Assembly (NCBI GenBank): GCA_963767735.1
Contig: CAVYES010000004.1
Span: 384,001 to 448,000 of the forward strand
Length of the DNA stretch: 64,000 nt
Direction: 5' to 3'
Origin: Candidatus Bathyarchaeota archaeon
Lineage (GTDB): Archaea; Thermoproteota; Bathyarchaeia; Bathyarchaeales; Bathycorpusculaceae
The notes beneath the pieces were generated by a model, which worked only from the letters and a program-made list of their open reading frames with translations, did not search any database and was not told the DNA's origin. Both the position numbers and the translations under genes were made by a program. Shown piece by piece: positions 1 through 12,059 of this stretch. Numbering within the stretch: position 1 is the first letter of the stretch; each line of letters begins with the position of its first letter.

Positions 1-1
1 A

Positions 2-526
2 ACTGGTTTTCCACGTAGCCGCTTGTTCGGCATGGGCAACATTCTTGATACAATACGCTTTAGAGCATACATTGCTAGTGAATTGGACGTTTCAAGAGAA
101 GACACTAATGCTTTAGTTATCGGTGAACATGGCGATTCAATGGTTCCACTGGCGGAATACGCTTCGGTTTCGGGGATTCCCATAACAAATTTTCTGACAA
201 AAGAGCAGATCGAAAAAATAATTCATTTAACGATAACCTCAGGTTCTGACGTTATCAAACTCAAAGGCTCAACAATCTATGCCCCCGGTACCGTAATTGC
301 CATTACGGCTGATGCAATTCTAACGGGAAGAAATCGAGTTATGAGTGTATCCACATGCCTTGATGGCGAATATGGCCATTCAGACGTTTCAATTGGTGTA
401 CCTGTTGTTCTTGGGAAAAGCGGGGTTGAAAAGGTAATTGAGCTTGAATTGTCAAATCAGACAAAAGAGCGCTTTGATAAGTCGGTTGTGGTGGTTAAAG
501 AAGCGATAGCTGCGTTGAAGAGCTAA
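2..526 (+). CDS. mdh: malate dehydrogenase (LDH/MDH family), 5'-truncated by window edge
   Basis: Open frame from base 2 (TGFPRSRLFGMG). LDTIRFR, VIGEHGDSMVP and SIGVPVVLG motifs of the LDH/MDH C-terminal domain. Confidence 0.9.
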   Translation, partial: TGFPRSRLFGMGNILDTIRFRAYIASELDVSREDTNALVIGEHGDSMVPLAEYASVSGIPITNFLTKEQIEKIIHLTITSGSDVIKLKGSTIYAPGTVIAITADAILTGRNRVMSVSTCLDGEYGHSDVSIGVPVVLGKSGVEKVIELELSNQTKERFDKSVVVVKEAIAALKS

Positions 527-567
527 CACTAACCCGAGGACTTAATGTTTAAAATGATAGAGTGTGT

Positions 568-765
568 TTAGCTGTGGATTTGCTTGGCACGTGCGCAGTA
601 AAAGTTTCCATTAACTTTTGTGAATGCTGGGCATTTGCCATCATAACAGTGCTCGAGCCATTGGCATGGTGCTCTAACATCATATACGCGAGGCATGTAT
701 CCTTGCGTGTTAAAACTTTCTTGGATTTTTTGTCGTTTAGAAACTTTTTCCAAAATTGTTTCCAT
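568..765 (-). CDS. small Cys-containing hypothetical protein (65 aa)
   Basis: ATG-started ORF with four Cys (C-x5-C-x4-C-x11-C), convergent with mdh. Confidence 0.5.
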   Translation of the reverse strand: METILEKVSKRQKIQESFNTQGYMPRVYDVRAPCQWLEHCYDGKCPAFTKVNGNFYCARAKQIHS

Positions 766-1003
766 TAAAATTCCCTCAAAATTTTTAATTGAAATTAGTA
801 AAGCTTCAATGGTGTTATTAAAAATGTGTGGCAGTCGCTAGGCAACAACAAAAGCATATAAGCACTAACTTGCGAAGAAAAAACAAGCGGAAAGCAGGTA
901 AACTGTTATTTTGCGAGCGTGTGCCTTTAGCAATTTTGGTCGTTTTTGCCCATTTTTAGGTCAAGGTCATTGCTGGCAAAGGATAATTATATTTAGCAGT
1001 TAA

Positions 1004-1951
<948 letters not shown>

Positions 1952-1955
1952 GCTT

Positions 1956-4172
1956 TCATGTGGAAGTGAAGCGGTCGAATGTTGCCAGGTTGCTCATGGA
2001 GCCGCACGATGGACATTTATGTAATGTTCCAAGCCAGCTTTTTTTGCAGTTATCGCAGAAACTAATTATTCGATTGTAAGTGAAGAATTCCAAAGATTGG
2101 TTTTCAATTAAGCGACGGGTTAAATCCATTACTGCTTCAGGCTTAAACTCAGCGGTCCACAACTCTATAACGCCTAAGGCGCCGCCAGCGTTTAGTCCCT
2201 TCATTTTTTGCGTTGTCTCCAACATTTCAGATGGTAGGCTGAGGGGTTCGCCAGCTTTAACTTGGAATCTTTTTGTTGTTGAGTAATAGGGTTTTTCTCT
2301 TGTTCCTGAGAACTTTACTTTGGCTACACCGTATTTTTCGATATCTAATTGGGCTAGCCGCTCTGATGCTTCAGAATCGCTCAGTATAACGGGGTATAAG
2401 CGTTTTCCATGTTTCCTGCCGATTTTCTGCTTGAAAGCCAAAATATTCTGAATTGTTTCCTCGGCAAACTTTCGGCCCTCTTCCGAATTTATGCTTTTTT
2501 CTGTAAAAGCTTCTACGGCTTCTTTGAATCCAGCTAAATTTATTATCCGTGAACAATTTTCTATCCTGAAGTATGTGTCTCCATTGGTGTTTTTTAGCAG
2601 GAAAGGCAACGAGTTTTTTCCAAATTGCTTAAGGGCAGTGTTTTTTACTCCTAAAGTTCGGGCGGCAAGTTCAAAACGTTCCCTTACCAAATCGAAAAAT
2701 TTGTTCTTGTCTTTCTCACTTTCTTGAGCGATTCTTGGCAAATTAATTGTTACACAGCCAAGGCAGCCTGTGCGGAGAGTGTCGGTTTCCCAGTCTCCAG
2801 TAAAATCAGATGCAAGTTTAACTCCTGAGGCGGAAAAAACCGTGTTTTCTGCTTCTTTTCTTACGGTGTTTGCAAAGTACGGTATTCCTTTTTCAGCTGC
2901 CAACTGGTGAACTTTGAGGAGAACCGCTTTCGCGTATTCACCTGCCAAGTCGTCTTTGCCAATTTTTATGACCAGTTTGGGGTTGAACAGTGGCTTCTGA
3001 GAACTCTCTTCGGTGAAGATTTCAATTATAAGTGACGCTAACAGTTGGCTTTCTTGGATGAAGTCCCCGTATTTGCCGCATATTTTTCCCTGAGGGCCAT
3101 ATGCTTCTTTTTCTGAGATTAATTTTGGAATTGAAAGCTCAAGCCCCAACGTTGCATTGGCATTCTGATTTAGGTTTAAGATGAATAAACGTAGGTTTTC
3201 CTTGATTCGTGATGTTTCAGCGTTTTTTGCAAAAGGTGCGAGAAAAACGTTGAAGTGGTCGCAGGTTTGAGTTCGGTTTGTTTCTTTGTTAGCATGCAGA
3301 AGAACGTTGAAGGCAACTGCCAACGCTGATTCAAAGTTGCTCGGAGACTCCATTGAAACTTGCTGTGGATTATTGAGTTTGAGGCCGTTTTGGAAGAAAA
3401 ACCTTAGGTCATGGCTGATTTCGTCTGGTTTTAGTATCCATGTGCCTAAGTTGTCGATGTGGATGGTGCCTGATAGGTGAGCGTCAGCTATGTCTCTTGG
3501 GAAAACGTTTAGCAGGGTGTACTCGCCAAGGACGGTTTGGCCTGCTTTTGTAAGCAATGTTGCGGAGTCAGCGGGGTCGTCTTTTGACTCCAATGAAGTG
3601 GTTACCTCATGTACGGGCATGCCAACTCTTGTGAGTTTATGGCGGTACTCCTCATAGCCTTTCTCAACCAAAATCCCGTTCACAATTTCCCTGATTAGGG
3701 CTGCTGTTAGGTACTTTGTTTTTGATTTAACCAGGCGTTTTTCCGCTTCTTTAGCCGCTTTCTGCGCTAATTCAGCTGGAACTTTTGCTTCTTTTATGAG
3801 TGAATTTGCTATTTTGTTTGCATCAAACTCTTCCATTGTTAAATGTGAAGTGCGTACAAGCATACCTCTGGGTTTAACCGCTTTCTTCTCAACACGGTCA
3901 GCTACGTCAAGAACCATTTTGCCAAGGTCAGTTAAATAGTATTTTTTTGATTCAACATCCGCTTCCACCAAATCTGCTTTTAACAGGAATTTTAAATGAT
4001 AAGCGAACCTGCCGGCGTCTCGGCTGGGATTCATTTTTAGCTGGTTCATCAGTTCAGTGTATGAGAGAGCGCTTTTGTCGAATAACAGGTTGAGGATTTG
4101 CAGTCTAAGAGGTGAAGAAACGGCTTTAAGCACTTTAACGCCGCGTGCACGTTGCGGAGGCTGATTTACCAT
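1956..4172 (-). CDS. ArsR-type winged-HTH + ATP-cone + class III ribonucleotide reductase (NrdD)-like fusion, apparently catalytically inactive
   Basis: N-terminal LKAVSSPLRLQILNLL...FAYHLKFL wHTH; VRTS...EEFDANKIANSL ATP-cone; NrdD motifs ADAHLSGTIHI, HDLRFF, GIPYF, VTINLPRIA; C-terminal CDNC/CPSC Zn ribbon. Likely ATG at 4172 (ORF track starts at 4220). Confidence 0.85.
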   Translation of the reverse strand: MVNQPPQRARGVKVLKAVSSPLRLQILNLLFDKSALSYTELMNQLKMNPSRDAGRFAYHLKFLLKADLVEADVESKKYYLTDLGKMVLDVADRVEKKAVKPRGMLVRTSHLTMEEFDANKIANSLIKEAKVPAELAQKAAKEAEKRLVKSKTKYLTAALIREIVNGILVEKGYEEYRHKLTRVGMPVHEVTTSLESKDDPADSATLLTKAGQTVLGEYTLLNVFPRDIADAHLSGTIHIDNLGTWILKPDEISHDLRFFFQNGLKLNNPQQVSMESPSNFESALAVAFNVLLHANKETNRTQTCDHFNVFLAPFAKNAETSRIKENLRLFILNLNQNANATLGLELSIPKLISEKEAYGPQGKICGKYGDFIQESQLLASLIIEIFTEESSQKPLFNPKLVIKIGKDDLAGEYAKAVLLKVHQLAAEKGIPYFANTVRKEAENTVFSASGVKLASDFTGDWETDTLRTGCLGCVTINLPRIAQESEKDKNKFFDLVRERFELAARTLGVKNTALKQFGKNSLPFLLKNTNGDTYFRIENCSRIINLAGFKEAVEAFTEKSINSEEGRKFAEETIQNILAFKQKIGRKHGKRLYPVILSDSEASERLAQLDIEKYGVAKVKFSGTREKPYYSTTKRFQVKAGEPLSLPSEMLETTQKMKGLNAGGALGVIELWTAEFKPEAVMDLTRRLIENQSLEFFTYNRIISFCDNCKKSWLGTLHKCPSCGSMSNLATFDRFTST

Positions 4173-4465
4173 AACCCTTTTCCCTAGACTCCCCGATTGG
4201 TGCTCTACGCATAATTGCAATGCAGAGTTTAAACTTAACTACCTCCTTATTTTCTCATTTAGCGTATTCTTTGGTGAAAAATGGCTCATTCTGCCGCTAT
4301 TTTCAGGCGACTTCCCCTGTTACCTTAGCCTAGACAGAGGCGTAATGAGTCGCGGTATTAAGGAAAGAGTTAAAATGCAGTAAAATGATAAGCGTGCTGA
4401 TTTGACACCAAGGGAGATGCAAATAGTCTATTAACTTAAGGGATAAAGGGAATAATTTTCATCTT

Positions 4466-5127
4466 GGTGAGTTTCTTGGGTCAATGCTCTTGTTATTGCT
4501 TCAATTTCACCAGCTATTCTTTTTTACCAAATCCTAAAAACTGATCTTGCTTTGGCTGTCTTGGCAGGTGCGATTGCTACTGGTTTTACTTTATTTGCTT
4601 TAATTGAGATTTTTTCGCTAGTTTGTACTGCGCTTTTTAATCCAGCTGTAACCCTAGTATTTGCTATTGATGGCAAATTGACATGGAAGCAAGCGGGGAT
4701 TTATAGTGTAACTCAAATATTAGGAGGACTTGCAGGTCTTTTAATTTCTCAATTAATGTTTTATGATAAGATTCCCAAGCTATTTGTAATATCTAATATT
4801 TCTCGTTCAGGCGGAAGTTTTGTTGCTGAAATTCTTGTTACTTTTTTTCTTGTGATTGCCGTTTGTTCTTTGAAGGAACAAAAGTCAAACAAAATGTCGC
4901 TTGTTATCGGTTTTCTTGTTGTAGGCATGAGCCTTGCAACTTCCAGCACCATGTTTGCGAATCCTCAAGTCACCATTGCTAGAATGTTTACTTATTCTGC
5001 AGCAGGAATAACTCCTCTTGACGGCTTAGTTTTTATCGCAATGCAAATTATTGGGGCTGTTTTGGCTGTTTTCGCGTGGAGAAGCATGCGCCTCACATGC
5101 TTTGACTACAAGTGCCAAAATTCCTAA
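4466..5127 (+). pseudogene. aquaporin/MIP channel (AqpS-like), frameshifted near the 5' end
   Basis: FNPAVT and FANPQVTIAR loops. Helix-1 motif GEFLGSML is in frame 2 while LVIASISPAIL onward is in frame 1. Confidence 0.65.
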
Positions 5128-5252
5128 GCCCCAGAAGCGGCTATCCCGCCAGCGTATTTTTTGCATCTCGACAGAAAAAAAGCACAAACCGCAAAAGCCT
5201 TTTATTCGTATTCTGTTTAAGGTAGCTTTAAACGTACTTGAAAGGGTTTACA

Positions 5253-8200
5253 ATGGCTTCTTTTGGTAAAGGCAAAGAAAATCTTAGAAAGAAAGTTGAA
5301 AGTAATCAAACGGTTGTCAATCGCAAGAAAGCAGAGGTAGCTTTGGCAAGGCAGGCTGAGCTTATTGATCTTAGTCCCAATGCCATAATGGTCAGGACAT
5401 TTGAGGGTGTTATTACTTTTTGGAGTAAGGGTGCGGAGAAGCTGTATGGTTGGACAAAAGATGAAGCCATTGGCCAAGTAACTCACACACTATTTAAGAC
5501 GAAATTTTCAGTGCCGCTTGAAGAGATTGAAAAAATGCAGAAGCTGGAAGGCAAGTGGTCGGGTGAACTTACCCAAACACGCAAAGACGGCGGCAAAGTG
5601 GTTGTTCAGAGTTATCAGTTGTGCCAGTTTGTTGCAGACGGCAAAATAGTGGAAATATTAGAGTCGAATGTTGATATTACTGAGCGAAAGAAAGCGGAGG
5701 AAGCTACAGCAAGGCAAGCTGAGCTTATCGACCTTAGTCCCGATGCAATAGTTGTTAGGACATTTGAGGGTGTTATTACTTTTTGGAGTAAGGGTGCGGA
5801 GAAGCTCTATGGTTGGACAAAAGACGAGGCATTGGGCAAAGTTACTCATAGATTGCTTAAGACGGAATTTCCATTACCGCTTGAAGAGATTGAAAACAAG
5901 CAAAAGCTGGAAGGCAAGTGGTCGGGTGAACTTACCCACACACGCAAAGACGGCGGTAAAGTGGTTGTGCAGAGTTTCCAGTTGGGTCAGTTTAGTGTCG
6001 ACGGCAAAATTGAAAGCATTCTCGAATCAAACATAGACATTACTGAACACAAGCAACAAGAGCGCGAAGTTAAAAATCTCGCAAAGTTTCCCTCCGAAAA
6101 TCCTAATCCAGTATTCCGTTTAGACGGAAAAGGCACAATTCTGTATGGCAACCAAGCCGGAACTTCTTTTTTGACTGCGTGGAAGAGCAAGGTGGGCGGA
6201 CGTGTACCTAAACACATAAGTCGGCTTGTTGCCGATGCCTTAGCATCCGATAAGAATGTTGAGGTTGAAGAAACATTTGGCGCTAAGACATTTTCAATCT
6301 TGTTTGCGCCTGTCACCTTGGAAGGATACGTAAATATTTACGCGACCGACATCACTGCGCGCAAGAAGGCGGAGGAATCACTTAAAGAAAGTGAACGTCT
6401 TTATCGCAAAGTGTTTGATAATAGTCAAGACGGTTTTCAGCTAATTGAGTTAATATATGATGAGAATGGAGAACCGTACGACCACAAGTTTTTGAGAGTT
6501 AACCGTGCTTATGAAAAAATAATAGGTGCTAAAGCAAAAGATGTTATAGGCAAGACGGCAAGGCATATCTCTCCAAACTGTGAGTCTTACTGGTTTGAAA
6601 TTCCTGCACGAGTTGCTAAGACTGGAAGATCAGAACATGTTGAACTTTATAATAAAAACATAAACAAATACTTAGACTGTTACTATTTCTCGTATTCCGA
6701 AAACGCAGTTGGTACACTTTTTAGAGACGTGACTGGAAGCAAGCAAGCTCAACAAGCAATTGAAAGGCAGGCTTCACTTATCGATCTTAGTCCTGACGGC
6801 ATTATGGTTAAGAGGCCTGATGACACTGTCACTTTTTGGAGTCAGGGCGCCGAGAAACTTTACGGTTGGACCAAAGAAGAAGCCATAGGTCGAAAGACCC
6901 GAGAACTTTTCATGACTTCGTTTCCGGTTTCCTTGGCTGAGATTGTTGGTCAACTTAAGCTCATTGGGAAGTGGTCAGGAGAGCTTATCCATCATGCGAA
7001 GAATGGGAATGAAGTCATAGTTCAAAGCTCTTGGCTCGCCACATTTGATAAGCAGGGCGAATTAACCGAAATTCTCGAATCTAACGTAGATATAGGTGAA
7101 CGTAAGCAGGCTGAGGAGAGGGTGCGTGCGGCTTCGCTTTATTCAAGAACCCTGATTGAAGCGAGTCTTGATCCGCTCGTAACAATCAGTGCCGAAGGCA
7201 AAATAACCGACGTAAACAAAGCAACTGAAGACGCAACTGGCTGTTCTCGTGAACAACTTATAGGCAGCGATTTCTCGAACTATTTTACTGATTCTGAAAA
7301 AGCCAGAAAAGGTTACCGTCAAGTGTTCTCAGAGGGTTTTGTAATTGACTACCCGCTTTCGTTGTGTCATAAATCAGGGAAAGTAATTGATGTTGTTTAT
7401 AATGCAACAGTTTACAGAAATGAAAGAGGCGAAATTCAAGGTGTCTTTGCTGCGGCACGCGATATCACACAACAGAAAAAAGCTGAAGAGCAACTGCGGG
7501 CGGCGTCTCTGTATTCACGGAGCCTGATTGAGGCAAGCCTTGACCCCCTGGTAACTATTAATGTTGTGGGCAAAATCACGGACGTAAACGAATCCACCGA
7601 AGAAGTCACTGGATGCGCCCGCGAGGAACTAATCGGTAGCGACTTTTCTGATTATTTTACCGAACCAAAGAAAGCTAAAGCGGGATATAGGAGAGTATTC
7701 ACTGAGGGCTATGTTAAAGACTACCCCCTTGCGATTCGTCATAAATCAGGCAGAATAACAGATGTGCTGTATAACGCTAGCCTTTATCGGAACGAGGCAG
7801 GTGAGATTCAGGGTGTTTTTGCAGCAGCAAGAGACATCACCGAACGCAAAGCGATGGAGAACGAAATCAAAGAAACAATGGAAAAACTTCAACTATCTAA
7901 TGCCGAACTGGAACAATTCGCGTATGTAGCATCGCATGATTTGCAAGAGCCTTTGCGTATGGTAGCAAGTTATGTTCAGCTGTTAGAGCGTAGATATAAA
8001 GGGAAACTAGACCCAGAGGCTGACGAGTTCATCGCCTACGCCGTGGACGGTGCCAACCGAATGCGAGGCTTAATTGATGACCTCCTAACTTACTCGCGGG
8101 TTAGCAGACTTGGCAAGCCCTTTGAACCAACAAACCTTGAATCAACGCTTGACGCCGCTCTTAAGAACCTGAAAGTATCCATTGCTGAAAACGGTGCAGT

Positions 8201-8597
8201 GGTGACGCATGATAAGCTCCCCGTAGTTATGGCTGATGGGGGGCAGCTTGTTCAGCTGCTTCAAAATTTGATTGGCAACGCCATAAAGTTCCATGGTAAG
8301 GAGCTGCCGCGTGTTCACGTATCAGCTAAGTCTCAAGAAAAAGACTATTTGTTCTCCGTGAAGGATAACGGCATTGGCATAGCACCTGAATACTATAATA
8401 GACTTTTCAAGATTTTCCAGCGCCTTCACACCCGAGAGGAATATCCTGGCTTAGGAATTGGCCTTGCAGTCTGCAAAAGAATCGTTGAGCGCCATGGCGG
8501 ACGTATCTGGATTGAGTCGCAGGTAGGGAAAGGTTCAACTATCTATTTTACATTAAACAAACAAAAAGGAGTGATTAAGCAAAATGAAAAGGATTGA
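5253..8597 (+). CDS. multi-PAS sensor histidine kinase (phytochrome-type HisKA/HATPase)
   Basis: Seven PAS-like repeats; H-box ASHDLQEPLR, N-box QNLIGNAIKF, G-boxes DNGIGI and GIGLAVC. Confidence 0.95.
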   Translation: MASFGKGKENLRKKVESNQTVVNRKKAEVALARQAELIDLSPNAIMVRTFEGVITFWSKGAEKLYGWTKDEAIGQVTHTLFKTKFSVPLEEIEKMQKLEGKWSGELTQTRKDGGKVVVQSYQLCQFVADGKIVEILESNVDITERKKAEEATARQAELIDLSPDAIVVRTFEGVITFWSKGAEKLYGWTKDEALGKVTHRLLKTEFPLPLEEIENKQKLEGKWSGELTHTRKDGGKVVVQSFQLGQFSVDGKIESILESNIDITEHKQQEREVKNLAKFPSENPNPVFRLDGKGTILYGNQAGTSFLTAWKSKVGGRVPKHISRLVADALASDKNVEVEETFGAKTFSILFAPVTLEGYVNIYATDITARKKAEESLKESERLYRKVFDNSQDGFQLIELIYDENGEPYDHKFLRVNRAYEKIIGAKAKDVIGKTARHISPNCESYWFEIPARVAKTGRSEHVELYNKNINKYLDCYYFSYSENAVGTLFRDVTGSKQAQQAIERQASLIDLSPDGIMVKRPDDTVTFWSQGAEKLYGWTKEEAIGRKTRELFMTSFPVSLAEIVGQLKLIGKWSGELIHHAKNGNEVIVQSSWLATFDKQGELTEILESNVDIGERKQAEERVRAASLYSRTLIEASLDPLVTISAEGKITDVNKATEDATGCSREQLIGSDFSNYFTDSEKARKGYRQVFSEGFVIDYPLSLCHKSGKVIDVVYNATVYRNERGEIQGVFAAARDITQQKKAEEQLRAASLYSRSLIEASLDPLVTINVVGKITDVNESTEEVTGCAREELIGSDFSDYFTEPKKAKAGYRRVFTEGYVKDYPLAIRHKSGRITDVLYNASLYRNEAGEIQGVFAAARDITERKAMENEIKETMEKLQLSNAELEQFAYVASHDLQEPLRMVASYVQLLERRYKGKLDPEADEFIAYAVDGANRMRGLIDDLLTYSRVSRLGKPFEPTNLESTLDAALKNLKVSIAENGAVVTHDKLPVVMADGGQLVQLLQNLIGNAIKFHGKELPRVHVSAKSQEKDYLFSVKDNGIGIAPEYYNRLFKIFQRLHTREEYPGLGIGLAVCKRIVERHGGRIWIESQVGKGSTIYFTLNKQKGVIKQNEKD
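5320..6050 (+). repeat. near-identical tandem PAS-coding repeat (2 x ~370 bp)
   Basis: aggacatttgagggtgttattactttttggagtaagggtgcggagaagct and aagctggaaggcaagtggtcgggtgaacttaccca each occur twice. Confidence 0.85.
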
Positions 8598-9030
8598 CGC
8601 AACAGCAGTGGACATTTTATTAGTGGAAGACAACCCTGGAGACGTTCGCTTAACCAAAGAAGCCTTGAAAGACGCAAAAGTGCTAAACGAAATTTACGTG
8701 GCTAGAGACGGCGTTGAAGCAATGGAATTCTTGAACAAAAAAGGATCATTTAAAGAAGCTCCTACTCCCGACATGATTCTATTAGACTTAAACTTGCCAA
8801 GAAAAGATGGGCGCGAAGTCCTAGCTGAAATTAAAAAAGACCCAAAACTCAAGCATATTCCTGTGATTATCCTGACAACATCCAAGGCTGACGAAGACAT
8901 TGTCAAGACATACAATTTACACGCAAACGCCTACATTACCAAACCAGTTGACTTAAACCGATTCGTTGAGATTATGCATGCTCTGGAAGAGTTCTGGTTT
9001 ACAATAGTAAAACTGCCACCAAAGGAGTAA
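8584..9030 (+). CDS. single-domain response regulator (Rcp1-like)
   Basis: ILLVEDNPGD, ILLDLNLP (phospho-Asp), LTTS and YITKP motifs; overlaps the kinase stop codon. Confidence 0.95.
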   Translation: MKRIDATAVDILLVEDNPGDVRLTKEALKDAKVLNEIYVARDGVEAMEFLNKKGSFKEAPTPDMILLDLNLPRKDGREVLAEIKKDPKLKHIPVIILTTSKADEDIVKTYNLHANAYITKPVDLNRFVEIMHALEEFWFTIVKLPPKE

Positions 9031-9037
9031 CTAAAAA

Positions 9038-10501
9038 ATTAGAATCCTTTTAATTGAAGACAATGCCGGCGACGCCAGGCTCATCCACGAGATGTTGGCT
9101 GAAGAAAAATTTGATGTACACGATATTGAGCGCGTTGACAGGCTTTCAAGAGGATTAGACCGTTTGGCAGCAGGTGGCATAGATGCAATTCTGCTTGACC
9201 TTGGATTGCCTGACAGTCAGGGTCTAAGTACCTTTGAAAAGATGTATGCAGCGAGTAAACAAGTACCTATTTTGATATTAACTGCATTCAAGGATGATGC
9301 ATTAGCTTTAGAAGCAGTCCGAAGAGGCGCACAAGATTATCTCATCAAAGGAAAAATTGACGCCGCTTTGCTAATTAGAGCTATAACCTACGCTATTGAA
9401 CGCGAAAAACTAGATGAAGCCTTAAAAAGGCAGGCAGAACTCATTGATCTCAGTCCCGACGCTATCATTATAAAAAAACCAGATGACACTATTACCTTCT
9501 GGAGCTCGGGCGCAGAAAAATTATACGGGTGGAGCAAGGCTCAAGCTATCGGACAAAAGGCCAATACGCTTTTTAATCCAAAGTTTTCAATGCCGTTTGA
9601 CGACATAAATCGTCAGCTAAAGCAAGAAGGCAAATGGTCAGGGGAATTTACTCATCAAACTAAACTTGGGCGCGCAGTAGCAGTTCAAAGTTACTGGTTA
9701 GCCAAATTTAATGAACAGGGAGAAATAGCGGAAATATTCGAGTCAAACGTGGATATCACCGAACGCAAAGATGCTGAACGTTTGGCCGCTATTGGTGCTA
9801 CAGCTGGCATGGTTGGGCATGATATACGCAATCCATTGCAAGCTATAGTTGGCGAAATATTTCTGTCAAAAAAAGAAATAGACGATTTGCCTGAAAGTGA
9901 AGCCAAGAAGTACCTTAAAGATAGCATCCAATCTATTGAAGATAACATATTTTATATTGACAAGATCGTTCGTGATCTACAAGATTACGCTAAACCCTTA
10001 ATGTCTTCTATTGAAGAAACCGATTTCACAAAGCTTGTTGAAGACGTTTTCTCCGGCTTAAAAGTTCCTGAAAACATAAATGTTGTTTATTCCATTGAGC
10101 CTTGTTTTACAAAACTTATGACTGACTCTTCAGCTATGAAGAGGATTCTAACAAACCTAAGCTCAAACGCAATTCAAGCCATGCCTAAAGGCGGAAAATT
10201 AACCTTGGATGCTGCCTACAAAGATGACAAGATATTCATAAGCATCCAGGATACAGGCTTGGGTATACCCGATGAAACTAAAGATAAACTTTTCAAGCCC
10301 TTATTTACAACTAAATCTAAAGGGCAAGGTTTCGGTTTAGCAGTAGTCAAAAAGCTAACTGAAGCATTAAATGGTAAGGTAAGCGTTGAAAGTGAGGTTG
10401 GAAAAGGCTCCCGCTTCACCGTTGAATTTCCTCTCCAAAAAATAACCACTCCTATTAGCCGTGTCCGCCTCAAGAATGCTGAGGTTCACCACCCCGCATA
10501 A
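9038..10501 (+). CDS. hybrid receiver-PAS-histidine kinase
   Basis: Receiver (IRILLIEDNAGD in frame upstream of ATG 9092; LLDLGLPDS; AQDYLIK), one PAS domain, H-box GHDIRNPL and HATPase. Start codon uncertain. Confidence 0.88.
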   Translation: MRILLIEDNAGDARLIHEMLAEEKFDVHDIERVDRLSRGLDRLAAGGIDAILLDLGLPDSQGLSTFEKMYAASKQVPILILTAFKDDALALEAVRRGAQDYLIKGKIDAALLIRAITYAIEREKLDEALKRQAELIDLSPDAIIIKKPDDTITFWSSGAEKLYGWSKAQAIGQKANTLFNPKFSMPFDDINRQLKQEGKWSGEFTHQTKLGRAVAVQSYWLAKFNEQGEIAEIFESNVDITERKDAERLAAIGATAGMVGHDIRNPLQAIVGEIFLSKKEIDDLPESEAKKYLKDSIQSIEDNIFYIDKIVRDLQDYAKPLMSSIEETDFTKLVEDVFSGLKVPENINVVYSIEPCFTKLMTDSSAMKRILTNLSSNAIQAMPKGGKLTLDAAYKDDKIFISIQDTGLGIPDETKDKLFKPLFTTKSKGQGFGLAVVKKLTEALNGKVSVESEVGKGSRFTVEFPLQKITTPISRVRLKNAEVHHPA

Positions 10502-10540
10502 GGCACTCTGACAGTAATCCGTCTTGCGATGGAAAATATT

Positions 10541-10578
10541 TGTTGTTACCTGTTTGAGACAACACATTTTCATATAGT
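10541..10578 (+). promoter_or_regulatory. TGTTGT-N12-ACAACA inverted repeat plus TATA-like box upstream of zinc-ribbon microgene
   Basis: The inverted repeat and TTTCATATAGT are also present upstream of the paralogue at 52744-52780. Confidence 0.55.
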
Positions 10579-10609
10579 TTAATCGCACTAGAAACAAGTA
10601 GTTGATTTA

Positions 10610-10756
10610 ATGATTTCGAGCTGCAATGTTAACTGTCCAAGATGCGGAAAAGAGCTTGCTAAACCTGATAAGAAACTCGAGAATTCTGTTTTTTGCGTTG
10701 CGCTTTACACATGTGATATGTGTGGCGCGAAATTCAAGTATGCTAAGTCATTTTAG
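10610..10756 (+). CDS. 48-aa CPxCG zinc-ribbon microprotein
   Basis: MISSCNVNCPRCGKELAKPDKKLENSVFCVALYTCDMCGAKFKYAKSF; paralogue at 52808-52954 shows synonymous substitutions. Confidence 0.85.
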   Translation: MISSCNVNCPRCGKELAKPDKKLENSVFCVALYTCDMCGAKFKYAKSF

Positions 10757-11008
10757 CTATTTGCGTAGCAGATGACGGATTCATTTTTCTTTTTTGTTGT
10801 CAAACTCGTTCTCGACTCCACTTCTTAATAATTTTTTTGTCTTAAATTATAGGTTAGTGTGTTTTTTAGTGAGTATTTGATTAATTAGTTTAATCTTTGC
10901 TCCATACTAACCCTTCCCCCCCGCACTTCTTAAAGTAAGAAACTTACCACTTTTAGACCTTGAAAGTTGGTCTTAGACCTTATTGCTTAACTCTTTTCTC
11001 TATTTTGT

Positions 11009-11170
11009 CTAAGATTTTTTTGTACTTTGACTTAGGGATTCTAATGCGAATTTAAGCCCGTATTCAAAAACTGATTTCTCTGAATAGCCTTCTTCTTTTA
11101 ATTTTTTAAGTTTGTCTATTGTTTCTGAATCTACGTCTGCACGAAAAGTCTTTTCTTCCAATCCACTCAC
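11009..11170 (-). CDS. 53-aa putative ribbon-helix-helix DNA-binding microprotein
   Basis: MSGLEEKTFRADVDSETIDKLKKLKEEGYSEKSVFEYGLKFALESLSQSTKKS; strand-helix-G-helix pattern. Confidence 0.6.
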   Translation of the reverse strand: MSGLEEKTFRADVDSETIDKLKKLKEEGYSEKSVFEYGLKFALESLSQSTKKS

Positions 11171-11260
11171 CTTTATGATAACAAACATATCAAAGCTTTT
11201 CAGATTTAAGACTTCTCCACTCTAAATAGCGAAGTTACTAACCCTTGAAAAATATTGTTG

Positions 11261-11389
11261 TTACCTTACCATCTTGAATTTACCCTTACATTTATCACAA
11301 GTGTAGGCTTCGATTACGATATTACTATTCTGTAATAAAACTTGGGGTTTTGAGGAAACTTTCTTATGGCAATGAAGGCATTCAGTCAC
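11261..11389 (-). CDS. 42-aa CxxC zinc-ribbon microprotein, divergent paralogue
   Basis: MTECLHCHKKVSSKPQVLLQNSNIVIEAYTCDKCKGKFKMVR; shares the CxxC...KP...NS...YTCDxC..KFK pattern with 10610-10756. Confidence 0.75.
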   Translation of the reverse strand: MTECLHCHKKVSSKPQVLLQNSNIVIEAYTCDKCKGKFKMVR

Positions 11390-11533
11390 TTTGATTACTT
11401 CTTACTGTAAGGTACGGTACTGAACAGAATATTACCTTATGGTGTCTCTTTCTGCTACAACATTTTAATAATCAAAAAGGTACCGAACAAACGTTTTTAT
11501 CATTCTTTTTCTTCTAATTTATTTGGTGTTTTT

Positions 11534-11783
11534 CTGAATCGAAATGAAGCGGTCCAAGTTCTTAAGGACATTTTTGAAATGTCCACGCTGTTTCATTTTC
11601 AATACGTTTCTTTGATAAGTCCTAACTCTGAAAATTTGCTATCACATGGTTATCAAGTTCTCTTTAAAGTAGACTTTGACAAAGAAAATGAAATGAGTAT
11701 TCTGTACGATGTTGCTGATAAGTAAGTTAGCTATGGAAATAGCTAAAGAAGGTTTAATTACCATTTATCGACCTATGCAGTAA
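11534..11783 (+). pseudogene. small hypothetical gene, apparently frameshifted
   Basis: CTG-started frame (LNRNEAVQVLKDIFE...VADK*) stops at 11725; a protein-like tail LAMEIAKEGLITIYRPMQ* follows in the +1 frame. Confidence 0.4.
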
Positions 11784-12059
11784 AAGAAGAAAGAATTAAC
11801 GAAGCCCTCTCGTTAGGCGGGTTTGGCTGCAGCATAAGCAAGGCGTTTAATGCTGTTTTTGTGTCTTGCCAATGTTCAGCACTTGGCTAAATTCGCTTAA
11901 TCATCTTTTTTGCCCTATCGAAACTGCCAATTTGATTAAAATCTATTAATTTTCCTTCTTTAGCTCAAAACCTTGTTATTGTTGATGCACAGTCACATCA
12001 TTATTTATTATTCTAGGCGCATTATCTTTATAAGCACGCAGAAAGGAGTAACCTAAAAG

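Follow-up and report, generated by a model that had tools for sequence, protein, structure and literature searches.

The window analysed here, a 64,000-nucleotide stretch of DNA from a Candidatus Bathyarchaeota archaeon, encodes on its reverse strand a 738-aa protein in which an ArsR-like winged helix-turn-helix (wHTH) domain is followed by an ATP-cone, a barrel resembling that of the class III ribonucleotide reductase (RNR) NrdD and a C-terminal Zn ribbon (Table 1). The convergent pyrB gene ends 4 nt from its stop codon. The reading frame is open from a TTG (1956..4220; 754 aa) and from an ATG at 4172 (738 aa). The ATG is the start position in orthologues, and a conserved TATA-like TTTAAA (4228-4233) lies upstream of it, such that a start at the TTG would fall within the promoter. 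This TTTAAA sits within a 10-bp palindrome (4226-4235), and the promoter also contains an imperfect inverted repeat, CTCTGC-N13-GTAGAG, formed by CTCTGC (4222-4227) and GTAGAG (4203-4208). The conserved 5' leader gave no Rfam match in a search of window positions 1-12000, and its fold is not unusual (z = 0.00). Metatranscriptome libraries from two studies contain short contigs that match the gene in part (e.g. one of 249 nt with 0 differences and one of 287 nt with 2), with a small share of sampled words (0.05-0.11); these are possible but weak evidence, and cannot show transcription, strand or transcript ends.

Table 1. Features of the wHTH/dead-NrdD locus, with positions numbered from the first letter of the window.
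Feature	Position	Strand	Basis and remarks
Gene for the 738-aa wHTH/ATP-cone/dead-NrdD protein	1956..4172	(-)	ORF and Pfam; stop codon 1956-1958
ArsR-like wHTH, aa 14-89	3906..4133	(-)	Pfam DUF7347/HTH_5; HlyU Foldseek match
ATP-cone, aa 105-176, 'V-R-T-S' type	3645..3860	(-)	Pfam, 29.3 bits (cut-off 25.8)
NrdD-like alpha/beta barrel core, aa 206-700, without catalytic residues	2073..3557	(-)	Pfam, T4 alignment, AlphaFold2, Foldseek
E251, aligned with the beta-A active-site Cys (T4 C79)	3420..3422	(-)	Alignments
Finger-loop remnant F446-S-A-S-G450, replacing the M-G/C-C-R thiyl-radical motif	2823..2837	(-)	Both alignments
C-terminal Zn ribbon, C706/C709/C720/C723	1959..2072	(-)	Alignments; protein ends 15 aa later, without glycyl-radical loop
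Conserved promoter	4201..4240	(-)	By eye, in most of 60 orthologous upstream regions; function inferred
pyrB (aspartate carbamoyltransferase)	1031..1951	(+)	Convergent; conserved synteny, no demonstrated role in the system

Two Pfam models recognize the wHTH above their gathering scores, namely DUF7347 (32.0 bits, aa 14-89; cut-off 27.6) and HTH_5/ArsR (29.1 bits, aa 20-70; cut-off 22), and the NCBIfam ArsR/SmtB model NF033788 stays under its cut-off (32.2 bits; cut-off 55). The wHTH scores are only modest. The presence of the NrdD fold is indicated by the NRDD model (PF13597; 229.3 bits, aa 206-734), with the NrdD equivalog TIGR02487 (NCBIfam) reaching 234.3 bits, under its cut-off of 326.35. 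The AlphaFold2 model is confident (mean pLDDT 90.1, pTM 0.80), and in Foldseek it comes closest to solved NrdDs, namely those of S. thermophilus, P. copri, T. maritima and T4 (E 2.7e-26 to 9D3X). The wHTH matches HlyU, a member of ArsR/SmtB, with a TM score of 0.69-0.74 normalised to the target. All four Zn-ribbon cysteines are invariant in a 71-sequence alignment of the family.

Catalytic residues and nucleotide sites

Residues were mapped through a HMMER alignment to T4 NrdD and a MAFFT alignment with eight catalytically intact NrdDs. The finger-loop Cys that carries the thiyl radical in NrdD lies in the motifs MGCR/MCCR (PMC9669993); in the window protein S447-A448-S449-G450 aligns with M-G/C-C-R, and S449 occupies the column that holds Cys in 8/8 intact rows. 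Likewise, the T4 C79 column on beta-A holds E251 as against Cys in 8/8 intact rows. The N-x-N substrate flap, which sits between cone and core in NrdD (PMC11226230, PMC12662201) and reads N-A-N or N-S-N in the intact archaeal rows, is missing from the window protein and its family. The protein ends 15 residues past the second CxxC, and the R-x-x-G-Y glycyl-radical loop is thus absent rather than mutated. No NrdG activase is encoded near the gene. The N-L-P-R strand retains N477, P479 and R480. A candidate replacement cysteine was also considered in the GCLGC stretch, where C470 aligns with T4 N311 on beta-F. The C470 column is variable across the family (N18, I11, V9, C8, S6, A6 and L6 among 77 members), which rules it out as a conserved substitute.

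The evidence for nucleotide binding is less complete. Cone residues R107, I121, R161 and R182 are invariant in the family, and the cone hairpin reads R-T versus the usual K-R, a type also found in intact archaeal NrdDs. Searching the cone alone against PDB sequences returned chance matches only, and its residues were compared with intact archaeal NrdDs instead. Nucleotide binding by the cone is therefore unproven, being inferred from sequence alone with the canonical K-R hairpin missing. For the dNTP specificity site, the column of the effector-binding Gln (T4 Q114/S. thermophilus Q225) holds N289 in the window protein and varies even across the alignment's intact rows, and no conclusion was drawn from it; mapping did not succeed for T4 E181, the second effector residue.

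Most of the original prediction survived this analysis. The proposed domain order (ArsR-like wHTH, ATP-cone, NrdD-like barrel and intact Zn ribbon) is upheld by Pfam and the alignments; the intact 738-aa frame and the lack of a nearby NrdG hold as well. The proposed loss of the thiyl Cys, beta-A Cys and glycyl motif is confirmed by alignment, on a confidently modelled NrdD-like fold, the glycyl loop being wholly absent. The possibility it raised that the GCLGC cysteines are displaced active-site residues was not borne out by the variable C470 column. Its ATP-cone holds by Pfam, but with the R-T hairpin, and its claim that the allosteric (d)NTP sites are kept is not shown for the specificity site.

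The protein thus shares with solved NrdDs (S. thermophilus 9D3X, P. copri 8P23, T4 1H79 and T. maritima 4COI) the fold, Zn ribbon and N-L-P-R strand, and with intact archaeal NrdDs its type of cone, but differs in lacking the thiyl Cys, beta-A Cys, NxN flap and glycyl-radical loop and in carrying an extra wHTH. The N-terminal 90 aa match HTH_5 and superpose on the ArsR/SmtB regulator HlyU (4OOI/3JTH); regulators of this type are proteins of about 100 aa that dimerise by themselves, whereas the wHTH of the window protein is appended to a putative sensor body of 650 aa.

A single-origin family under purifying selection

A phmmer search of 1.84 billion representatives yielded 1775 matches at E<=1e-3 and 336 at E<=1e-30. 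From the best 150, 95 were kept for a length of 560-810 aa; 76 of these carry the wHTH, giving 77 members together with the window protein. No member has Cys in the beta-A column (0/77), two have Cys in the thiyl column (2/77), and none combines the catalytic residues (0/77). Gly is found in the radical column, within a pseudo glycyl-radical tail, in 13/77 members, for which no explanation is offered. Conversely, the wHTH is absent from all 7 intact representatives. In a tree of the core from which the trait columns had been removed, every one of the 76 wHTH rows included falls within a single 78-row clade (SH-aLRT 97). The wHTH/dead-NrdD family is therefore large, monophyletic and of single origin, spanning Bathyarchaeia and Nitrososphaerota and including Nitrosopumilus, Nitrosotenuis and Nitrosarchaeum. 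A strong match is present in 104 of 151 surveyed Bathyarchaeia genomes, and in ammonia oxidisers a relative is encoded in at least 497 of 600 pattern-matched stretches. Dead NrdD-like proteins without a wHTH (e.g. P0197 and P0234; two ATP-cones plus barrel) resemble the family in having lost the finger-loop Cys and glycyl motif and kept the cone, but they have no DNA-binding domain and are placed inside intact-NrdD clades in the tree, indicating separate inactivations.

The gene is under strong purifying selection. Across 15 orthologue pairs, overall dN/dS is 0.06-0.10 where dS is unsaturated. Constraint is strongest on the wHTH (0.01-0.02; 10 pairs at 78-91% identity), with values of 0.01-0.07 for the ATP-cone and 0.09-0.14 for the barrel core where dS could be estimated. 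In 56/62 close loci the gene is one ORF of >= 680 aa; in the other 6/62 it is broken up or stop-riddled, which could reflect either assembly error or true loss. These data bear on whether the gene is simply a decaying nrdD pseudogene whose frame has stayed open by chance. The missing catalytic residues and the six broken copies are consistent with decay, but the low dN/dS, a length of 737-739 aa in most of 120 listed clusters and a single-origin family found across two archaeal classes all but exclude it.

Genomes encoding the family also encode a separate RNR. Canonical NrdD is present in 60 of the 104 strong-match genomes, and a class I/II large subunit (PF02867) in 40 of the other 44. The four genomes with neither are 72-85% complete and contain NrdD-like fragments, and in no surveyed genome of >= 90% completeness is the wHTH/dead-NrdD gene the sole RNR-like gene. 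In the genome from which the window derives, a separate nrdR-nrdD-nrdG operon is the only RNR found, with the single NrdG above cut-off located beside the canonical nrdD on another contig. This canonical nrdD, on contig 10, carries a frame break of a single base, which may be either genuine or an assembly error. The true NrdR of this genome matches PF22811 and TIGR00244, bona fide NrdR occurs in 16/16 surveyed members of the window's taxonomic family, and NrdR-box-like repeats lie upstream of the nrdR-nrdD-nrdG operon; control of RNR in this family may thus rest with NrdR.

It could be argued that the protein is still an enzyme, with the barrel supporting an unconventional reductase or another nucleotide-transforming activity. 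The barrel is conserved, the N-L-P-R residues N477, P479 and R480 are kept, and 13/77 relatives have the tail Gly. Against this, the window protein lacks the glycyl loop, the active-site cysteines at both positions and the substrate flap, and no surveyed genome at >= 90% completeness depends on the gene as its only RNR-like gene. Moreover, the glycyl radical is oxygen-sensitive (PMC2795772) and would not survive in the aerobic ammonia oxidisers in which the family is present. An enzymatic role is accordingly very unlikely. Public pipelines nevertheless name proteins of the family 'anaerobic ribonucleoside-triphosphate reductase', in aerobic ammonia oxidisers as elsewhere. When Bathyarchaeia and aerobic Nitrososphaerota are reconstructed metabolically, this label wrongly implies that dNTPs are made anaerobically.

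Genomic context of the family

The gene is repeatedly found upstream of RNR genes of two classes (III and II), and its pairing with them is conserved. In other Bathyarchaeia families, a canonical nrdD lies immediately downstream on the same strand in 8/8 inspected loci, and the NrdDs encoded there carry a Q-C-C-R finger loop and R-I/V-T-G-Y in all eight. By coordinates, the gene is paired with canonical NrdD in >= 24 of the 151 surveyed genomes. In family f11 of the Bathyarchaeia, a class II RNR is directly downstream in 3/10 loci and separated by one small ORF in 3 more. A class II RNR likewise adjoins the gene in 75/80 loci of soil Nitrososphaerota (74 on the same strand) and in 73/80 loci of ammonia oxidisers. 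In the taxonomic family of the window, the window locus included, the gene adjoins no RNR gene.

This arrangement is compatible with the protein being a partner of RNR, the dead barrel pairing or competing with an active RNR subunit, an activase or a reductant, and the wHTH serving for protein contacts. The gene is positioned beside RNR genes, and a dN/dS of about 0.1 indicates purifying selection on the barrel. Intact NrdDs are dimers, and a mixed dimer is hence conceivable. However, depending on the lineage the neighbouring RNR is of class III or class II, two enzymes that share little surface. In addition, the wHTH is the most constrained part and of the ArsR/HlyU DNA-binding type, and the gene is kept under selection in the window's taxonomic family without an adjoining RNR gene. 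We regard this partner model as unlikely.

The position of pyrB has a different explanation. It is convergent with the gene at <= 200 nt in 52/62 close loci, and in distant relatives (e.g. loci L075, L076, L079, L081 and L172) it often lies, likewise convergent, behind the RNR gene. The older gene order was the wHTH/dead-NrdD gene, an RNR gene and convergent pyrB, with the RNR gene subsequently lost in the lineage of the window. Loss of the intervening gene explains the present adjacency, which is a remnant of the older order rather than a direct functional hint. A related possibility is that the protein is a regulator, but in this lineage one that acts on pyrimidine biosynthesis (pyrB-pyrI) or on a broader set of nucleotide-metabolism genes. 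This is favoured by the synteny with pyrB in both close and distant relatives, and by RNR in the window's taxonomic family having its own NrdR. Against it, convergent genes have no promoter in common, the pyrB link is accounted for by loss of the intervening RNR gene, and a shared motif was not found. A role of this kind is therefore also unlikely.

The RNR gene context is a new result beyond what had been read from the window alone, and it lends strong support to the NrdR-like idea in the original prediction, whose view of the protein as a pseudoenzyme regulator is supported, with DNA binding and nucleotide dependence remaining inferred. Regarding its other comparative claims, orthologues do not retain the catalytic residues but share the losses, a separate intact-type RNR does co-occur, and automated pipelines do mislabel the protein as nrdD. 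The suggestion that pyrB hints at a link to nucleotide metabolism fails as a direct hint, the 4-nt spacing itself being correct.

A putative RNR-linked regulator

Taken together, the domain architecture, the loss of all radical-chemistry residues, the single origin of the family, the strong purifying selection, the conserved pairing with two RNR classes and the co-occurrence with a real RNR, all of which are shown, make it likely (probability about 0.7) that this RNR-derived pseudoenzyme is an RNR-linked, probably nucleotide-sensing transcription factor. That it binds DNA, dimerises and senses nucleotides is inferred, as are its target genes and the sign of regulation. In the proposed mechanism, a descendant of class III RNR, catalytically dead, would have gained an N-terminal ArsR-type wHTH. 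The NrdD-like barrel would hold the protein dimeric and place the two wHTH domains on repeated or palindromic sites, which are predicted both in RNR promoters and in the promoter of its own gene. The adenine/deoxynucleotide pool would be read by the ATP-cone, perhaps together with relic nucleotide pockets of the barrel, and DNA affinity would change accordingly.

Such regulatory logic would be that of bacterial NrdR, assembled from different parts. NrdR is described as sensing ATP/dATP through its cone (PMC9110341). In both proteins an ATP-cone is joined to a DNA-binding domain, and both are often positioned to regulate their own gene. Genomic linkage to RNR genes of several classes is seen for NrdR and for the wHTH/dead-NrdD family as a whole, but not at the window locus. 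In contrast to NrdR, which uses a Zn ribbon as its DNA-binding domain, the window protein has an N-terminal ArsR-type wHTH and, after the cone, a 500-aa dead reductase barrel. It matches neither the NrdR Zn ribbon PF22811 (Pfam) nor TIGR00244 (NCBIfam), and its own genome encodes a true NrdR besides it. The protein is thus likely to be an archaeal counterpart of NrdR in function, by analogy and without homology across the whole protein.

NrdR is described as rare in archaea (PMC9110341), leaving the regulation of RNR genes in most archaea an open question, for which the family provides a concrete and testable candidate. No description of it was found in the open-access literature searched (subscription journals and supplementary files lay outside the search), and term searches of PMC9669993, PMC3019208, PMC2795772 and PMC9110341 gave no mention of wHTH-fused or inactive NrdD. 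If the regulator reading is true, the family would clearly exemplify the conversion of an enzyme into a sensor and regulator of the pathway to which it once belonged. A bolder reading, which could as readily prove wrong as right, is that Thermoproteota, including the globally abundant ammonia-oxidising archaea, control RNR through a regulator derived from a dead reductase. Duplication of a class III RNR would have been followed by loss of the radical chemistry and replacement of the outer ATP-cone by a wHTH, and the remaining cone, possibly with relic effector or substrate pockets, would set transcription of whichever RNR class is present. This would supply an archaeal NrdR counterpart and a third home for the ATP-cone.

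Repeated promoter words occur in relatives of the window protein and, with the wHTH fold, are the sole basis for inferring specific DNA binding as a dimer. In the window's own clade, no shared operator was found, only the conserved promoter, and the words TTGAC and TGATC are not repeated there (one TTGAC and one GTCAA in 388 nt). The words enriched elsewhere differ from clade to clade and may belong to another factor. Independence is overstated by the enrichment figures, since the loci are related and the background consisted mainly of coding DNA. In ammonia oxidisers, TGATC arrays are found upstream of the gene and in the RNR spacer (453 observed versus 95.5 expected). In the soil clade, the upstream region of the gene and the spacer that precedes the RNR gene are enriched in TGTCAA (15-fold) and TTTGAC (17-fold); TTGAC-N5-GTCAA palindromes are also present, with a half-site directly 3' of the TATA box of the gene.

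Domain architecture and catalytic residues

The gene occupies a single open frame whose start codon is shared with its orthologues. A conserved TATA-like box is located 56-61 nt upstream of this ATG, so the upstream TTG falls inside the promoter. Four Pfam domains score above their cut-offs, and the NCBIfam NrdD equivalog yields 234.3 bits, under its cut-off of 326.35. The AlphaFold2 model predicted from a 71-sequence family alignment is confident (pLDDT 90.1, pTM 0.80), and its top Foldseek matches are exclusively solved class III ribonucleotide reductases (RNRs; S. thermophilus, P. copri, T. maritima and T4). In Foldseek, the first 90 residues match HlyU of the ArsR/SmtB family, and they belong to the ArsR/HTH_5 fold class. 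Pfam classes this winged helix-turn-helix (wHTH; DUF7347) as a domain of unknown function, and the protein appears in public records as 'anaerobic RNR' in some cases and as 'ArsR family transcriptional regulator' in others. Short RNA-library contigs from two studies map to parts of the gene (e.g. 249 nt with 0 differences, 287 nt with 2), though they are weak evidence of expression, as such contigs cannot prove transcription.

Locations of the gene, its domains and other features (L001 is the nrdR-nrdD-nrdG locus on contig 10, C10, of the source genome, G000)
Feature	Location	Detail
Open frame	window 1956-4220 (-)	
Gene	window 1956-4172 (-)	ATG at 4172; 738 aa
ArsR-type winged HTH	aa 14-89	DUF7347 32.0 bits, HTH_5 29.1 bits
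ATP-cone	aa 105-176	Pfam 29.3 bits
NrdD domain	aa 206-734	Pfam 229.3 bits
MIP/aquaporin-like ORF	window 4552-5127	191 aa
Sensor histidine kinase and response regulator	window 5238-9030	1119 aa and 148 aa
NrdR-box-like repeats	L001:620-690	two, ~32 bp apart
nrdR	L001:701-1147	
Canonical nrdD	L001:1144-3298 (~C10:36550-38710)	ORFs of 614 and 151 aa
Frame break in nrdD	near L001:2885-2900	one base

Catalytic residues were mapped through HMMER alignment to T4 NrdD, the canonical NrdD of the source genome and seven intact representatives. Where active NrdD carries the finger-loop motif M-G/C-C-R (PMC9669993), the window protein reads S447-A-S-G450, with S449 in the thiyl Cys column, and the beta-A Cys (T4 C79) is replaced by E251. 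The N-x-N flap, which closes over the substrate in the P. copri and S. thermophilus enzymes (PMC11226230, PMC12662201), is kept in intact archaeal rows and missing from the window protein. The chain stops 15 residues past the Zn ribbon's second CxxC, with the whole glycyl-radical loop absent; the four Zn cysteines are invariant across the 71-sequence alignment. The protein is a structural relative of NrdD that fails five of the eight defining NrdD features tested. The original prediction, of a wHTH and an ATP-cone fused to an NrdD-like barrel that keeps its Zn ribbon and lacks its catalytic residues, held in every detail that could be tested. It had left open that cysteines of a G-C-L-G-C stretch might serve the active site of a residual enzyme; C470 of this stretch aligns with T4 N311, in beta-F, and its column is variable across the family. 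A residual enzyme is considered highly improbable, and the window protein is very likely a pseudoenzyme.

Family, single origin and selection

A word-indexed search (8000 candidates scored) recovered 1806 relatives, the best 120 of which are 76-98% identical, mostly of 737-739 aa and sharing the window protein's Pfam domains and, where a source is named, from Bathyarchaeia and labelled 'anaerobic ribonucleoside-triphosphate reductase'. Exhaustive phmmer searching of 1.84 billion representatives gave 1775 matches at E<=1e-3 and 336 at E<=1e-30. From the best 150, 95 proteins of 560-810 aa were kept, the 55 dropped being fragments or long proteins that probably bear inteins. A custom HMM built from eight members detects the wHTH in 76 of the 95; seven others are intact NrdDs (Cys motif and R-I-T-G-Y), none with a wHTH, and 12 are dead without one. 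Among the 77 wHTH rows formed by these representatives and the window protein, the beta-A Cys occurs in none, a thiyl-column Cys in two (P0150, P0156) and a radical-column Gly in 13, within a degenerate C-terminal tail; no row combines these features. The tail beyond the ribbon reaches at least 28 aa in 33 rows and stops early, as in the window protein, in 32, and the ribbon pattern is missing from 12, mostly through truncation. In a maximum-likelihood tree of the barrel, with finger-loop and beta-A columns taken out, all 76 wHTH rows present fall in one clade of 78 (SH-aLRT 97), together with P0181 and P0240, indicating that fusion and inactivation occurred once.

Several further features of these relatives were observed. 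In the 13 with a radical-column Gly (e.g. P0170, P0159, P0158, P0143), the tail resembles a glycyl-radical domain and both active-site cysteines are lost. A second kind of dead NrdD (P0197, P0204, P0221, P0234, P0250, P0258, P0263, P0264) consists of ATP-cones and barrel without finger-loop Cys, glycyl motif or wHTH, with two cones in each of the two proteins scanned with Pfam; these fall in two clades among intact NrdDs and hence represent independent inactivations. Four loci carry the archaeal gene under bacterial names (L025, Limnocylindrales; L042, Acidoferrum; L132, 'bacterium'; L220, Phycisphaerales), and their contigs are likely mis-binned. The gene is broken in 6/62 close relatives (L056, L058, L063, L067, L068, L073), into two pieces or by many in-frame stops (L068); several of these loci come from long-read MAGs, and either real pseudogenes or indel errors could account for them.

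Selection was estimated between the window gene and 15 equal-length orthologues; L062, which would have been the sixteenth, was left out, as an indel disrupts its ungapped alignment. Across the whole gene, dN/dS is 0.06-0.10 where dS is unsaturated, with values of 0.01-0.02 in the wHTH (10 pairs, 78-91% identity), 0.01-0.07 in the ATP-cone and 0.09-0.14 in the barrel; wHTH and cone also hold most invariant columns of the 71-sequence alignment. Plain decay, by which the missing residues would reflect simple degeneration, is all but excluded. In the cone, V-R-T-S takes the place of the K-R hairpin found in most cones, a hairpin that touches phosphates in the enzymes of E. coli and S. thermophilus (PMC12662201). 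Given that intact archaeal NrdDs have the same core-adjacent cone (P0186, P0187, P0208, P0210), this variant is inherited, not degenerate.

Gene context and ribonucleotide reductases

In a sample of 151 Bathyarchaeia genomes, the wHTH-plus-cone part has a strong match (E<=1e-40) in 104, and contig-end fragments in two more. Canonical NrdD is also encoded in 60 of the 104, and the class I/II large subunit (PF02867) in 40 of the 44 without it. Neither RNR is present in the other four (G021, G039, G045, G097), genomes of 72-85% completeness that hold additional NrdD-like fragments; apart from these, wHTH-NrdD is never the sole RNR in this sample.

Both in the window and in 52/62 close loci, pyrB is convergent with the gene and no more than 200 nt away, an adjacency originally taken as a weak hint of a link to nucleotide metabolism. 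In all eight loci of other Bathyarchaeia families examined ORF by ORF, a canonical NrdD (Q-C-C-R finger loop, R-I/V-T-G-Y) lies directly downstream on the same strand, with pyrB converging behind it in four (L075, L076, L079, L081). Coordinates place the same pairing in at least 24/151 surveyed genomes, spanning at least 11 family codes. Family f11 of the Bathyarchaeia has no canonical NrdD; among its ten loci, a class II RNR is directly downstream in three, follows one small opposite-strand ORF in three and is non-adjacent in two, while two reach a contig edge. Outside Bathyarchaeia, RNR pairing is nearly universal. Class II RNR adjoins the gene in 75/80 soil Nitrososphaerota loci (74 on the same strand); the five exceptions are loci of 2.5-7 kb that have little or no sequence downstream of it. 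In this group, pyrB is convergent behind the RNR in one soil locus (L172). Among ammonia oxidisers (Nitrosotenuis, Nitrosopumilus, Nitrosarchaeum, Nitrosotalea), class II RNR is downstream in 73/80 loci, at 200-390 nt in the 20 from which spacing was taken, and partial at a contig end in three more. The most economical history is an old order of this gene, an RNR gene and convergent pyrB, from which the RNR was lost in the window's lineage. On this history, the pyrB adjacency is a relic and no clue of its own, contrary to the original hint; a regulator of pyrimidine synthesis, the rival to which this adjacency would point, is unlikely. At L081 (G077:C16), the dead and canonical NrdD genes are separated by a small ORF that is glutaredoxin/NrdH-like and carries a CPRC motif, a hint that class III RNR may depend on a redoxin in this lineage.

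The source genome, at 94.9% completeness, lacks any PF02867 match; NrdR (151.5 bits, cut-off 124.65), a cone-bearing canonical NrdD and NrdG (186.3 bits, cut-off 131.15) are encoded together in a single contig 10 operon. NrdR exceeds its cut-off in 16/16 genomes of the window's family and four of one other family, and in no other family of the 151-genome sample, which suggests a single acquisition. The NrdR heading this archaeal operon is of bacterial type (Zn ribbon and ATP-cone), with NrdR-box-like repeats upstream. The canonical nrdD, the only RNR found in the genome, is split into overlapping ORFs by a frame break outside any homopolymer (same-genus frames span 709-748 aa); a wrong assembly and a broken sole RNR are both possible.

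Proposed regulatory role and promoter sequences

The window protein is likely a DNA-binding regulator tied to ribonucleotide reduction (probability about 0.7), since its ArsR-type domain is the most constrained and gene pairing follows two unrelated RNR classes across two archaeal classes; there are no binding data. The pairing could also be read as that of an RNR-binding subunit, which is judged unlikely beside the same two observations. For the regulator, it is as likely as not that the cone or relic barrel pockets sense nucleotides, by analogy with NrdR and RNR enzymes; nucleotide binding is unproven. The protein is proposed to work like NrdR, yet it lies outside that family, without the NrdR Zn ribbon or a TIGR00244 match. 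Its targets in the source genome are unknown, as the gene there stands apart from RNR, whose operon encodes an NrdR of its own. No description of a wHTH-fused dead NrdD was found in the open-access literature searched, including RNR-phylogeny and NrdR papers (subscription journals and supplementary files were outside scope).

In soil Nitrososphaerota, the 200 nt preceding the gene, taken together with the RNR gene's upstream spacer, show 15-fold enrichment of TGTCAA and 17-fold enrichment of TTTGAC over the remainder of the loci. The RNR spacer contains TTGAC-N5-GTCAA palindromes, and a TTGAC sits immediately 3' of the TATA box of the gene itself. In ammonia oxidisers, the corresponding word is TGATC (453 observed vs 95.5 expected), which is often arrayed upstream of the gene and is likewise present immediately 3' of the TATA box and within the RNR spacer. 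These words fit a single factor that acts at both promoters and whose recognition has drifted from clade to clade, though nothing links them to this protein, the background is mostly coding DNA and the loci are mutually related. In the window's clade, only a strongly conserved promoter and leader were seen, the leader having no Rfam match and no unusual fold.

Two other features of the window were observed. The sensor histidine kinase contains several near-identical PAS-type repeats, visible as repeat blocks in its translation, and its gene overlaps that of the response regulator by 14 nt. Of the 222 positions in the Pfam model, the MIP/aquaporin-like ORF covers only 43-177.
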